Shown here: positions 39,161 to 42,765 of the stretch, in pieces | Layout: every line of letters begins with the position of its first letter | How positions within the stretch are numbered: the stretch's first letter is position 1 | DNA from: Escherichia phage vB_EcoM_PTE-Eco05 | Reading direction: 5' to 3' (one strand) | DNA length: 64,000 nucleotides | Sequence record: PQ306573.1 | Program-made: the position numbers and the translations under genes | The notes under the pieces: model-generated | What the model saw: the letters and a program-made list of their open reading frames with translations, nothing else | What the model was told of the DNA's origin: nothing | Database searches by the model: none

Positions 39161-40153
39161 ATGTTACCTGTCGTCAGAAAACTTATTTCTCCAAAAGAAC
39201 TGGCTGAGATTATTCCTTTGTCGGAAGCTTACGCATCACAAGTGGCTTCTCATCGCGAACAAGTTAATTCGATTATGAACGGTGAAGACCCACGCAAACT
39301 TATTGTTGTAGGTCCTTGTTCAATTCATGACCCTATTGCTGCTGTTGAATACGGCAAACGTCTGGCTGAACTTCAAACTCGTCTTCCTAATGTTCTGTTA
39401 GTGATGCGCGTTTATTTTGAAAAGCCTCGAACTACCGTAGGTTGGAAAGGTCTTGTAAATGATCCATATCTTGACGGAAGTTTTGATATGAACCACGGTC
39501 TTATAGTTGCACGAACATTGTGTCGTAAACTTCTACGTATGGGACTTCCATTAGCAACTGAAGTATTAGACCCATTCACGATTAAGTATCTTTCTGGTAT
39601 TTTCTCATGGGTTGCTATTGGCGCCCGTACGACTGAAAGTCAGACACATCGTGAAATTGCTTCAGGTCTACCGATGTGCGTAGGCTTCAAGAACGCAACC
39701 AATGGTTCTATTAAAGTAGCTACAGACGCGATGTATAGTGCCGCGCGGCCTCATCGGTATATGGGTATGGACGTCGATGGTACTGTAGGCATTGTTGAAG
39801 CTGAAGGTAATCAGAATACGCATATCGTATTGCGTGGCGGGACTAACGGCCCGAACTATCATTCTTCTGATATTCAAGAAGCTTCTAACAAAGCAAGTGC
39901 AGTAGGTCTGAATCATTATGTAATGGTTGACTGTAGCCATGCAAACGCTGCTGGGCATTATAGCAATCAAATTGGTATTGGTAAAAATTTAGCAGCTAAT
40001 GATTTGGTCAAAGGAATTATGATAGAATCATTCCTACATGAAGGAAATCAAAAAATTTCTGATAATATGTCCTATGGCGTTTCCGTTACTGATGCGTGCA
40101 TCAGTTGGGAACAAACTAAAGAGCTGTTAACTTATATTAATAAGGTTCAATAA
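39161..40153 (+). CDS. 3-deoxy-D-arabino-heptulosonate-7-phosphate (DAHP) synthase, class I (AroG/AroF/AroH-like)
   Basis: 330 aa; motifs VVGPCSIHD, MRVYFEKPRTTVGWKGL, IGARTTESQTHREIASGL, GFKN, RGG, DCSHAN, IESxLHEGNQ, ITDACISWE align with E. coli AroG. Confidence 0.85.
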   Translation: MLPVVRKLISPKELAEIIPLSEAYASQVASHREQVNSIMNGEDPRKLIVVGPCSIHDPIAAVEYGKRLAELQTRLPNVLLVMRVYFEKPRTTVGWKGLVNDPYLDGSFDMNHGLIVARTLCRKLLRMGLPLATEVLDPFTIKYLSGIFSWVAIGARTTESQTHREIASGLPMCVGFKNATNGSIKVATDAMYSAARPHRYMGMDVDGTVGIVEAEGNQNTHIVLRGGTNGPNYHSSDIQEASNKASAVGLNHYVMVDCSHANAAGHYSNQIGIGKNLAANDLVKGIMIESFLHEGNQKISDNMSYGVSVTDACISWEQTKELLTYINKVQ

Positions 40154-40734
40154 TGAAAGCTAGCACATACCTTCAGATTGCATATCTGATTTCTCAAGAA
40201 TCAAAATGTTGTTCATGGAAAGTTGGTGCCGTCATTGAAAAAGATGGACGCATTATTTCTACAGGTTATAATGGCTCTCCTTCAGGTGGTACAAACTGTT
40301 GCGAACATGCATCCGAAAACGGCTGGTTGAAGAATAAACCAAGCCCGGTCATCGTTGCTGGACATAAAGAAGGCACTACAGCATTTGGACGGGCAGATAA
40401 TTTTGTTTTGGCTAAAGAACATCGGGCCGCTCATAGTGCATGGTCTGCTAATAACGAAATCCATGCTGAATTGAATGCCATTTTGTTTGCAGCTCGTAAA
40501 GGTAATTCTATTGAAGGTGCTACGTTATATACGACACTTTCTCCATGTCCTGATTGCACTAAAGCTATCACACAGTCAGGCATTAAAAAGGTTGTATATG
40601 CAGAATTATATGACCGGTCTCCTGAAAATTGGGCAGACATTCTAAAACAAGCCGGTATTGAAGTAATTCAGTACTCTCGTAATAATCTTCGTTCTCTGAA
40701 TTGGGAACAAATTCGAAACTTTTGTGGTGAATAA
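40153..40734 (+). CDS. cd: dCMP deaminase
   Basis: 193 aa; zinc-binding HAELNA ... SPCPDC deaminase motifs; T4 Cd length. Confidence 0.88.
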   Translation: MKASTYLQIAYLISQESKCCSWKVGAVIEKDGRIISTGYNGSPSGGTNCCEHASENGWLKNKPSPVIVAGHKEGTTAFGRADNFVLAKEHRAAHSAWSANNEIHAELNAILFAARKGNSIEGATLYTTLSPCPDCTKAITQSGIKKVVYAELYDRSPENWADILKQAGIEVIQYSRNNLRSLNWEQIRNFCGE

Positions 40735-41089: not shown

Positions 41090-41422
41090 ATGTCTGAAGT
41101 ACAACTCCCAATTCGTGCTGTTGGTGAATATGTCATTCTGGTTTCTGAACCCGCTCAAGCAGGTGATGAAGAAGTTACCGAATCAGGACTTGTGATTGGT
41201 AAACGTGTTCAAGGTGAAGTTCCTGAACTATGTGTAGTTCATTCTGTAGGTCCTGATGTTCCTGAAGGTTTTGTTGAAGTCGGTGATTTGACTCCACTAC
41301 CAGTTGGACAAATTCGAAATGTTCCACATCCATTTGTGGCTTTGGGACTTAAACAACCTAAAGAAATTAAACAGAAATTCGTAACATGTCACTATAAAGC
41401 TATTCCGTGTCTTTATAAGTGA
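41090..41422 (+). CDS. 31: Co-chaperonin gp31 (GroES functional homologue)
   Basis: 110 aa; [29 protein letters not shown] matches T4 gp31. Confidence 0.92.
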
Positions 41423-41546
41423 TATAAATAACTATATGAAGAGAACACTCTTCTAAGCGGTAGCCTACAACTGAGAGACTTGTCGAAAGAAGGTGAAATT
41501 CAGACGAACGTGGCTACTAAATATTATCTCGAATTGAGAATTTAAA

Positions 41547-41795
41547 ATGATTAAACAATTACAACACGCTCTTGAACTGCAACGAAACGCATGGAATAAC
41601 GGTCACGAAAACTACGGCGCGTCAATTGATGTTGAAGCCGAAGCACTGGAAATCCTGCGTTATTTCAAACATCTGAACCCGGTACAGGCAGCTTTGGCCT
41701 CTGAACTGGAAGCAAAAGATGAACTGAAATATGCTAAGCCTTTGGCTTCTGCAGCTCGTAAAGCAGTACGTCATTTTGTTATTACCCTTAAATAA
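41547..41795 (+). CDS. rIII: rIII lysis-inhibition accessory protein
   Basis: 82 aa; MIKQLQHALELQRNAWNNGHENYGASIDVEAEALEILRYF matches T4 rIII. Confidence 0.88.
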   Translation: MIKQLQHALELQRNAWNNGHENYGASIDVEAEALEILRYFKHLNPVQAALASELEAKDELKYAKPLASAARKAVRHFVITLK

Positions 41796-42089
41796 GTTTT
41801 AGGTGATTCGCTACCTTAGTGCGGCTAGAAAATCGAGGAGCCGTCGAACTGTCTGATTAATGATTTGCGAATCATTATAGTTTTAAGACCCCGACAGTTT
41901 TACGGTGTACCTCTTGAATGTATTTTGTACTATCACGCGTCAGAAAAAGGTTATCTGTCTAAGTCGTGGTTGGTATGATGACGGGTTTATGGTTATCCTG
42001 TCGTTAAATATCCAAAACCTATGTTCCCCTTGAGGGCTTGCGCAGGCAATGTCAATAAGTCCTGCATTTTCATTTAAAGAGAATTTATA

Positions 42090-42269
42090 ATGGCAAAACA
42101 AGCTAAAGCAAAGAAAGCAGTCGAAAAGAAAGTTGATGGTACCTCTAAACGCGCTGGATACAAGCGTGGGTCGAACTCTCGTATTAATCAAACAGTTGAG
42201 AAGATCATGCGCAGAGCACGTGCAGTTCTTCGAGATGATGCTTCTCGTTTTGGAAAGGTTGTTGCATAA
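42090..42269 (+). CDS. Small lysine-rich basic protein (59 aa)
   Basis: Not in ORF track (<60 aa); ATG 42090; followed by a strong terminator. Confidence 0.4.
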   Translation: MAKQAKAKKAVEKKVDGTSKRAGYKRGSNSRINQTVEKIMRRARAVLRDDASRFGKVVA

Positions 42270-42274
42270 TTTTA

Positions 42275-42296
42275 GGGAGACTTCGGTCTCCCTTTT
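42275..42296 (+). terminator. Rho-independent terminator, UUCG hairpin
   Basis: GGGAGAC-TTCG-GTCTCCC + TTTTG. Confidence 0.7.
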
Positions 42297-42329
42297 GTGA
42301 GTTTAGGGCAGAAAAAGTTTAAAAAAGAT

Positions 42330-42359
42330 GTTTACTCTCCTGTAGGATGTGTTACTATA
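42330..42359 (+). promoter_or_regulatory. T4-type early promoter
   Basis: GTTTAC-N18-TACTAT. Confidence 0.5.
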
Positions 42360-42399
42360 GACTTGTACCACCTAATCAATAAAACAACCGGAGAATAAA

Positions 42400-42765
42400 A
42401 TGAACTACATCAACTTCGAACGCAAATATGTTTCTAACGGTATCGCTGGTTCTATCGATATGGTTTGCTTGTGGAAGCATAAAAATGGTTCAGTATGTGA
42501 AATTGAGCAGTATATGACTCCTAATTACGTTTATATGCGCTTTGAAAATGGTATCACGGTTTCAATCACGATGGAAGGTTCCAACTTCAAAATTGCATTA
42601 GATGACGATTTCCGTCAACGTGATTTAGGTACTCATCCTTGCTGGAACGGTGTTAATCGTAAACTTCTGGTTAAAACTTGGATTCGTCATATCCTGAGTA
42701 ACCGAGCTAAACCTGAACATCTCGAAGCAATCTTTGATGTAGTTCTTAACGAATTCGATATCTAA
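42400..42765 (+). CDS. Hypothetical protein
   Basis: 121-aa ORF with GGAGAA RBS. Confidence 0.5.
   Translation: MNYINFERKYVSNGIAGSIDMVCLWKHKNGSVCEIEQYMTPNYVYMRFENGITVSITMEGSNFKIALDDDFRQRDLGTHPCWNGVNRKLLVKTWIRHILSNRAKPEHLEAIFDVVLNEFDI

Follow-up and report, generated by a model that had tools for sequence, protein, structure and literature searches.

ToxI, the RNA antitoxin of the ToxIN systems of pECA1039 and of E. coli plasmids, is encoded as 2-10 tandem copies of a unit of approximately 36 nt, followed by a terminator and the toxin gene toxN. ToxN reads G30, A31 and A32 of the ToxI 3′ overhang (PMC8860590), and shut-off of host transcription releases the toxin (cited in PMC8860590). Phage PhiTE carries a pseudo-ToxI that suppresses ToxN (PMC3475682) and has been described as the sole case of RNA mimicry (PMC9391042, PMC10853763, PMC8860590, PMC3475682, PMC5449768); a ToxI-like locus in T4-type phages is, as far as we found, mentioned in none of these papers on ToxIN and T4. 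Here, we consider the gap between rIII and gene 30.9 in Escherichia phage vB_EcoM_PTE-Eco05 (record PQ306573.1), of which a stretch of 64,000 nucleotides (the window) was analysed. The window comes from a T4-like phage of the genus Mosigvirus, and its positions 41400-42420 are 98-99% identical by megablast to mar005P1-, ATK47- and WFbE185-type phages. Our reading, to which we give a probability of about 0.6, is that the gap is a transcribed modular RNA array whose first unit (M1), an orphan mimic of ToxI, probably dampens ToxIN.

The PhiTE element and M1 are alike in being phage-borne, non-coding orphan copies of ToxI that are intergenic, lack toxN and are read as antitoxin RNA mimicry (PMC3475682). 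The PhiTE record annotates its pseudo-ToxI, which is 84% identical to ToxI, compared with approximately 86-89% for M1 (estimated by eye). PhiTE has 1.5 repeats in a non-folding register and needs their expansion, whereas M1 is one unit spanning the full active register (5′ tail, pseudoknot and CUAGAA); M1 also differs in belonging to a T4-like phage, in lying within a larger array of structured modules and in being known here from sequence. With the ToxI of pECA1039 and of E. coli plasmids, M1 has in common a homologous unit of about 36 nt and the same H-type pairs, including the compensatory variants of natural subfamilies, but it occurs as one copy without toxN and departs slightly from ToxI in loop L3 and in its 3′ flank.

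Other described RNAs resemble further parts of the gap. Antitoxin pseudoknots of the TenpI type are, like module M4 below, H-type structures of approximately 50 nt, the A-rich loop being so positioned that it can contact stem 1 (PMC3401426, PMC12283969); M4, by contrast, is present in a single copy with no adjacent toxin, and the likeness is architectural only, without any sequence match in plasmids or E. coli. The RNAs rnaC and rnaD of T4 (species 1 and 2) are, like the modules, small, conserved and structured phage RNAs, and the tract of phage A7_1 described below brings modules together with tRNAs and an rnaD homologue; the array of the window nevertheless lies in an mRNA and not in a tRNA cluster, and no similarity in sequence was noticed by eye, in a comparison that was not systematic. 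T4 gp32 autoregulates through a pseudoknot in its own leader, and T4 mRNAs with hairpins that sequester the Shine-Dalgarno sequence are known. The gene 32 leader and the gap both place a pseudoknot and an AU-rich leader upstream of a small protein of the nucleic acid-binding type, in the same phage family; however, they are unrelated in sequence, and the gap is 294 nt long, modular, shuffled between phages and, in A7_1, partly found without the gene. The features of the gap are as follows.

41796-42089: gap between rIII and gene 30.9, 294 bp
41801-41834, + strand: M1, a single ToxI-family unit (pseudo-ToxI), AGGTGATTCGCTACCTTAGTGCGGCTAGAAAATC, recognized by blastn, nhmmer and pseudoknot pairs
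41835-41921, + strand: M2a, a long bulged hairpin GAGG..CCTC, then the conserved tail TTGAATGT (RNAalifold)
41927-41975, + strand: M3, a hairpin with an internal loop, inner stem CAGA/TCTG and loop AAAAGGTTA (RNAalifold)
41975-42022, + strand: M4, an H-type pseudoknot (covariation) in which stem S1 pairs GACGGG (41980-41985) with CCTGTC (41997-42002) and stem S2 pairs the loop TATGGTT (41988-41994) with AACCTAT (42016-42022)
42023-42040, + strand: M5, a short GC hairpin GTTCCCC-TTGA-GGGCTTG, which includes the dyad CCCCTTGAGGG
42042-42065, + strand: M6, a hairpin GCAGG/CCTGC with a conserved 14-nt loop CAATGTCAATAAGT
42066-42089, + strand: M7, an AU-rich leader with the Shine-Dalgarno sequence of 30.9

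A single ToxI unit downstream of rIII

M1 begins 6 nt past the rIII stop codon, and this unit in the first 35 nt or so of the gap had been missed in the initial annotation, which was made from the sequence alone. When the gap was compared by blastn with 72,556 plasmids, matches were obtained only via positions 1-43 of the query, at multiple sites per record. Four plasmid records were opened: those of pECA1039, an E. coli plasmid of 6 kb, IncX4 pU90-1 and a Lelliottia plasmid. In each of them, the matching segments form an array of 36-nt tandem repeats that immediately precedes toxN. The original ToxIN plasmid, pECA1039, has 5.6 copies of the 36-nt ToxI repeat AGGTGATTTGCTACCTTTAAGTGCAGCTAGAAATTC upstream of an annotated type III ToxN/AbiQ toxin, and the 6-kb plasmid has the same layout. 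The Lelliottia unit AATCCAGGTGATTCGCTACCTTAAGTGCGGGACGAA, present in 10.1 copies, is closer to M1 than is the pECA1039 repeat, and the Lelliottia and pU90-1 units have TTCGC...GCGG in common with the M1 of the window. As read from the sequences, the M1 of WFbE185 equals the Lelliottia unit over 25 nt, and the window differs by a 1-nt deletion. A profile search by nhmmer gave one match in the whole window (E=3e-9). A scan of bacterial genomes based on ToxN returned one locus, a metagenomic toxIN with a GATACGC...GCGA variant of ToxI, and this variant is also found in two other phage lineages.

The ToxI pairing scheme used here was deduced from sequences and not from the crystal structure. It describes an H-type pseudoknot (GGUG with UACC; UYRC with GYRR), in which 93.1% of cells are paired across eight natural ToxI units and 12 phage copies. 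Three of the eight pairs (13-29, 14-28 and 6-19) change on both sides, and the covariation score is reached by none of 500 shuffles, with slid controls at or below 0.112. Phage lineages differ in the M1 variant that they carry, each resembling a different natural ToxI subfamily. The 3′ overhang CUAGAA is intact, and AAAU motifs flank the unit at 41790-41793 and 41830-41833. On this sequence evidence, it is close to certain that M1 and ToxI are homologous.

No tandem repeat was found in 41400-42400 by Tandem Repeats Finder, and there is no toxN downstream of M1, where the neighbour is 30.9, the product of which has no significant Pfam match, ToxN included. With a single unit and no toxN, M1 is an orphan mimic (pseudo-ToxI) and neither an antitoxin array nor a toxin-antitoxin locus. 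A CRISPR repeat was also considered, the M1 of T4 being slightly type I-F-like and M5 slightly type I-E-like, and was rejected, since the stems lack complementarity in the register of a CRISPR repeat and neither genomes nor plasmids yielded a match.

Structured modules downstream of M1

Each of the 35 T4-like loci has M4 once and only once, on the + strand. In an unbiased alignment (MAFFT) of 24 distinct copies, 80.7% of cells pair, compared with 66.1% after shuffling; the covariation score is 0.378 vs 0.148 in the shuffled alignments, none of 500 shuffles reaches it and slid controls stay at or below 0.149. Changes on both sides are seen in eight of the 13 pairs. Stem S2 has the general form of a loop nnnGGUU with AACCnnn and occurs as GUGAG/CUCAC, GAUGG/CCAUC, CAAGGUU/AACCUUG and UAGUAGUU/AACUACUA; in the window's own type, it has only about 4 bp. 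Loop L3 is A-rich and 15 nt long, GTTAAATATCCAAAA (also written GUUAAAUAUCCAAAA). M4 has the architecture of a type III antitoxin, namely an H-type pseudoknot with an A-rich loop and a size in the range of approximately 40-57 nt (size range PMC3401426). No bacterial array of M4-like tandem units adjoining a toxin gene was found by sequence in plasmids or E. coli genomes (E ≤ 10), no curated TenpI set being part of the comparison.

M2a encloses the 7-bp inverted repeat TAATGAT-TTGCGA-ATCATTA (41858-41877) that had been singled out in the initial annotation, and its outer arms were recovered as an inverted repeat in a repeat search. RNAalifold gives 25 pairs, four of them with compensatory changes, plus invariant G.U pairs; M2a is also identical to T4 at 84 of 84 positions. 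In M3, which is absent from T4, RNAalifold gives 13 pairs, four of them compensatory, from seven distinct copies. The changes include CAGA/UCUG to CAGC/GCUG, and the outer stem is replaced in one locus (L032). The near-direct repeats of the initial annotation, GGTTATCTGTC at 41949-41959 and GGTTATCCTGTC at 41991-42002, prove to be the loop-plus-3′-stem segments of M3 and M4, respectively. We regard RNA structure in M2a, M3 and M4 as highly likely.

The GC-rich dyad CCCCTTGAGGG, likewise noted at the outset and located at 42026-42036, is M5. This hairpin is found in all loci, its position being shifted in some genera, and its covariation is limited to an exchange of CCCU/AGGG with CCUC/GAGG, as read from the sequences. 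The stem of M6 covaries with Gelderlandvirus-like copies (ACUGG/CCAGU) with the loop kept, and Karam-, Moon- and Jiaodavirus have a longer internal-loop hairpin in its place. M7 contains a hairpin ATTTTC/GAGAAT in the minimum free energy fold that is not thermodynamically significant; on this modelling, it may weakly hide the Shine-Dalgarno sequence of 30.9. A UCUCC/GGAAGA pairing is possible near the corresponding site in other genera.

There is thus covariation across related phages in four modules (M1, M2a, M3 and M4), which was the check that had been proposed for the gap. It is covariation of the + strand and includes G.U pairs, which are C.A mismatches on the other strand, so that the functional strand is the + strand, the sense strand of the operon. 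The suggestion that the gap encodes a small structured RNA or a regulatory region is borne out to this extent, and also by a conservation that exceeds that of the flanking genes. Rfam 15 gave only chance-level or terminator-like matches in the window and none in ten related loci; it evidently has no ToxI model because the true ToxI array of pECA1039, used as a control, was also unmatched.

The reading frame after M7 (42090-42269), correctly called as a 59-aa basic, lysine-rich open reading frame in the initial annotation, had not been recognized as conserved T4 gene 30.9. It encodes a homologue of T4 gp30.9, according to deposited annotations and tblastn, and belongs to phrog_1427 (‘unknown function’). 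The protein is basic and highly conserved and has no significant Pfam match. Its AlphaFold2 model has a mean pLDDT (predicted local distance difference test) of 68.5 and a confident C-terminal helix (residues 30-54), which is too simple for a fold search. No similarity was seen to the ToxN inhibitor TifA, and the protein is unrelated to the open reading frame downstream of the A7_1 array. The label ‘glycogen branching enzyme’ that RAST-derived records attach to 30.9 is spurious.

Conservation and modular arrangement in T4-like phages

The conservation on which the initial annotation had made its proposal depend is seen in T4 and in every T4-like locus examined. T4 has an equivalent gap of 244 bp between rIII and 30.9 (NC_000866 130541-130784), and the order gp31-rIII-30.9 is constant in 35 of 35 T4-like loci from at least nine genera of Tevenvirinae, with an interval of 120-416 bp. 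Over aligned positions, the gap of the window has 97.5% identity to its T4 counterpart, compared with 86-90% overall and 66-74% at third codon positions for gp31 and rIII; between the window and Dhakavirus IME08, the values are 94.5% over aligned positions for the gap, and 76-90% overall and 58-80% at third codon positions for the flanking genes. The gap is more conserved than its coding flanks and is under selection; it is not slack DNA.

Interval alignments resolve the gap into seven RNA modules, the presence and order of which vary between genera. The order in the window is M1-M2a-M3-M4-M5-M6-M7. T4 is without M3 and RB69 without M1, and some Mosigviruses have M3-M7 only. Jiaodavirus has the order Mx-M4-M1-M2b-M5-M6(long)-M7, Gaprivervirus has both M2a and M2b, and other lineages start with M5. 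Profile searches find every module once per locus and, within the window, nowhere except in the gap; simple motif matches elsewhere in the window fall within genes and were dismissed as chance. M2a-M7 and M2b have no bacterial counterpart in 72,556 plasmids or 5,426 E. coli genomes (blastn, E ≤ 10), at a sensitivity sufficient to detect a relation like that of M1 to ToxI.

Escherichia phage A7_1, which is rV5-like (Vequintavirinae), has M2a and M4 at 87% identity to RB69 (L046 596-745 and 766-1040), and its M2a shows compensatory changes in three helices. Both modules belong to a non-coding tract of 675 bp and immediately precede two tRNAs and a homologue of T4 rnaD (species 2 RNA); neither rIII nor 30.9 is near them. 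Their presence here goes back to a single transfer, A7_1 being the sole such record outside the T4-like phages, and shows that the M2a and M4 RNAs can persist apart from gene 30.9. Further uncharacterized hairpins lie upstream in the same tract.

M2b, which is absent from the window, is a conserved RNA of approximately 135 nt in many T4-like genera (L005 1013-1147, L042 534-668, L043 505-639 and 15 further loci). It has a loop-to-downstream pseudoknot (CGAUGG/CCAUCG exchanged with CAAUGA/UCAUUG), a GNRA-capped hairpin and a closing stem that covaries (CUUAUC/GAUAAG with UCUAUC/GAUAGA). It has no Rfam family and looks like a new class of structured RNA. In Dhakavirus IME08, the usual position of M1 is taken by a second pseudoknot resembling M4 (GTGGA..TCCAC with GCAGGTA/TACCTGC; L006 ~957-1000).

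ToxI-like units in other phages

A ToxI dimer used as query matched 215 phage records with ToxI-like single units, from several unrelated families and including T4-like Klebsiella phages at the equivalent locus; approximately 80 records carry M1 of the window type at 90% identity or more. Two of these units, in a Moazamivirus and a Kuravirus, occupy short intercistronic gaps a few bases past a stop codon (SSB to sigma factor in Salmonella phage SeKF_80, L052 401-439; terminase to portal in Escherichia phage XT18, L053 401-440) and are therefore placed as M1 is, in unrelated families.

The T5-like Salmonella phage Kenya-K36 (L048 2501-2539) has a near-perfect ToxI unit in a spacer of approximately 45 nt between tRNA-Ile and tRNA-Met, and Erwinia phage IT22 (L049 2501-2539) has one in a spacer of similar length between tRNA-Ser and tRNA-Glu. 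Judging from these arrangements, ordinary tRNA processing would free a unit-length antitoxin RNA without ToxN. No description of ToxI units between phage tRNAs was found in the searchable literature.

Possible function of the array

We envisage that the gap would form the non-coding middle of a transcription unit that runs from rIII to 30.9, ends at the terminator at 42275-42296 and is readable both from early or middle promoters that lie upstream and from a late promoter TATAAATA at 41423-41430. M1-M7 would fold independently as a modular array, M1 retaining both the pseudoknot of ToxI and CUAGAA, the overhang read by ToxN. When the phage shuts off host transcription, the labile host ToxI decays and ToxIN fires; the phage pseudo-ToxI, freed either by host RNases or by ToxN itself through cleavage at the AAAU motifs on its two sides, could then refill the antitoxin pool, fill the active-site groove of ToxN and lower the cleavage of phage mRNA. 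M2a, M3, M4, M5 and M6 are structured RNAs on which purifying selection is strong, and they most likely serve as decoys or bind proteins; M4-M7 may also tune the amount of gp30.9. M1 is lost and gained within one genus, as its absence from RB69 indicates, and this is typical of counter-defence cargo.

Several observations weigh against this proposal. One PhiTE pseudo-ToxI repeat failed to neutralize ToxN under over-expression, and PhiTE escape required expansion to 4.5-5.5 copies (PMC3475682), whereas M1 is one unit. The flanks of M1 are non-canonical, with GAAAAU on the 3′ side in place of GAAAU and the 5′ AAAU lying 8 nt (vs 4 nt) upstream of AGGUG, and its L3 loop is 2 nt shorter than that of ToxI. 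The M1 of T4 has diverged, with a compensated stem 2, an A.G pair in stem 1 and no plasmid match. T4 is strongly restricted by ToxIN and RB69 less so, a difference that the authors credit to TifA (PMC9391042). Given that T4 is restricted despite its diverged M1, and RB69 less so without any, M1 is neither necessary nor sufficient in those laboratory pairs, and the lower sensitivity of RB69 cannot be due to M1. A decoy role for M2a-M7, which have no bacterial counterpart, is unsupported. Whole-gap thermodynamic z-scores are unremarkable, and structure therefore had to be demonstrated by comparison. We put the chance that one M1 unit is active against ToxN at about even.

A possible but doubtful alternative is that M4-M7, or the whole gap, constitutes a cis-acting structured 5′ untranslated region controlling the translation or stability of 30.9, with M1 being the scar of recombination with a ToxIN plasmid. 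By analogy with gp32, autoregulation would then be possible, with gp30.9 binding the pseudoknot and closing the Shine-Dalgarno hairpin. This would suit the presence of M4, M5 and a hairpin proximal to the Shine-Dalgarno sequence upstream of 30.9 in 35 of 35 T4-like loci, as well as a basic, very conserved and largely helical gp30.9 with a hairpin that could cover its ribosome-binding sequence. However, that hairpin is weak, M2a and M4 of A7_1 stand beside tRNA genes without 30.9 or rIII nearby, and the shuffling of module order (M4 before M1 in Jiaodavirus; M5 first elsewhere) fits autonomous units better. Nor would a decaying scar keep compensatory pairs and track several ToxI subfamilies, as M1 does. 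It could also be, although we find this fairly doubtful, that the modules are trans-acting stable small RNAs cut from the transcript, comparable to rnaC, rnaD and the RNAs of tRNA arrays, each with its own host target, M4 mimicking a TenpI-type antitoxin. The modules do behave as cassettes; M2a and M4 of A7_1 lie directly upstream of tRNAs and the rnaD homologue, ToxI-like units are found between tRNAs in T5-like and Erwinia phages, and TenpI units are, like M4, H-type pseudoknots of 39-57 nt with an adenosine stretch (PMC3401426, PMC12283969). Against this stand the absence of any plasmid or E. coli genome match to M2a-M7 at E ≤ 10 and the fact that A7_1 represents a single transfer event. 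A broader proposal, that the whole gap serves counter-defence as a non-coding island in which small RNA decoys are arrayed as cassettes, pseudo-ToxI being only the recognizable one, appears rather unlikely. M4, M2a, M3 and the 135-nt, pseudoknotted M2b would then neutralize other RNA-binding defence proteins, such as TenpN- or AbiF-type toxins or defence reverse transcriptases, and orphan antitoxin units in mRNAs or between tRNAs, freed by host processing, would be a common and overlooked phage strategy.

General mRNA architecture, in the form of elements that stabilize the rIII mRNA at its 3′ end, sites of RNase processing or a partial terminator (M6 plus a U-rich tract) setting the rIII:30.9 ratio, is a clearly unlikely explanation. 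Hairpins do follow directly after the rIII stop codon, M6 is followed by AUUUUCAUUU and the adjacent gp31-rIII gap is also full of covarying hairpins; yet such roles have no need for conserved loops, a pseudoknot or near-100% identity across genera, and leave the ToxI homology unexplained. The other half of the initial interpretation, a site associated with replication or recombination, is not supported. A DNA-level element of this kind, whether origin, recombination hotspot or protein-binding site, might be suspected from the dyad symmetries and from a 10-nt ‘ori type 2 repeat’ annotated just upstream of 30.9 in the ATK47 record (L001 2171-2180, equivalent to approximately 42070-42079 of the window), for which no support as an origin was found. 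Covariation of the RNA type argues against a purely DNA-level role, the compensatory changes with their G.U pairs being valid only in + strand RNA. There are no iterons, direct repeats or tandem repeats, no origin is annotated in the 31-rIII-30.x region of T4, and the sole origin in the inspected parts of the T4 record is oriA, in gene 56; we consider such an element very improbable. A decayed or unannotated protein-coding gene is scarcely credible either. The measured gap agrees with the roughly 290 bp without a convincing open reading frame of the initial annotation (rIII ends at 41795 and the next convincing frame starts at 42090). Small open reading frames in the gap are annotated in some records, one being a 37-aa frame with a TTG start in a relative, but they are not conserved in frame, a stop codon lies 15 nt upstream of the 30.9 ATG in the window, indels between relatives are not multiples of three, and conservation tracks helices and not codons. 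The ‘11.1 kDa protein in Gp30-rIII intergenic region’ of T4 (UniProt, 97 aa) is an N-terminal extension of 30.9 that depends on a one-base difference in an A-run, and longer models of 30.9 in RB51 and others likewise extend into the structured gap; such extensions are probably annotation artefacts because the frame is not conserved.

If a single-unit mimic works, RNA antitoxin mimicry would be standing cargo of many phage families (at least 215 records) and not a rare laboratory escape, and it would help to explain strain-specific sensitivity to at least five E. coli ToxIN clusters. T4 is the reference phage for ToxIN work. Among its longer non-coding gaps, the present one holds at least four covarying RNA structures without an Rfam family, one of them a pseudoknot shared by every Tevenvirinae locus sampled, and these are concrete, mutable targets in a region of T4 without assigned function.

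Neighbouring genes and transcription signals

The surroundings of the gap comprise the following features.

40153-40734, + strand: cd, followed by 31.1, also on the + strand
41090-41422, + strand: gp31
41547-41795, + strand: rIII
42090-42269, + strand: gene 30.9, encoding the 59-aa basic protein
42275-42296, + strand: intrinsic terminator GGGAGAC-UUCG-GUCUCCC-UUUU, read from sequence
42330-42358, + strand: T4-early-type promoter GTTTAC-17 nt-TACTAT, preceding gene 30.7

There is no toxin gene among cd-31.1-31-rIII-30.9-30.7. The UUCG terminator (GGGAGAC-TTCG-GTCTCCC-TTTT in DNA) lies where the initial annotation had put it, and the same terminator is annotated by ARNold at the equivalent place in the relatives ATK47 and WFbE185. 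A simple scan for sigma-70 promoters and terminators was uninformative and missed it; Rfam matches at this site are weak and terminator-like only. A promoter-like GTGTAC-17-TACTAT at ~41905-41933 was rejected, being absent from T4 and from loci that start with M3. A tRNA scan found none in the window. Between 30.9 and 30.7 (42297-42399), gene 30.8 is absent; WFbE185 and RB69 carry a gene of approximately 370 bp there.

The late-promoter box is of the T4 type and stands directly after the gp31 stop codon, so that late transcripts would cross rIII, the gap and 30.9. A small hairpin TCTCGAATTGAGA within 41530-41546 overlaps the Shine-Dalgarno sequence of rIII and covaries in other genera (CCTCATTTGAGG). 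The gp31-rIII gap also contains a covarying hairpin at 41459-41517, without an Rfam family, in which the internal loop UACAAC / GA(A/C)GAACGUG is conserved and the apical loop is GUCGAAAGAAG; from the window to T4, GUAGCC/GGCUAC becomes GUAGUC/GACUAC and ACUU/AGGU becomes AUCU/AGAU. The motif of this hairpin is also found in the rIII-30.9 gap of Karam-, Moon- and Jiaodavirus, there in place of M6, which marks it as another mobile RNA module.

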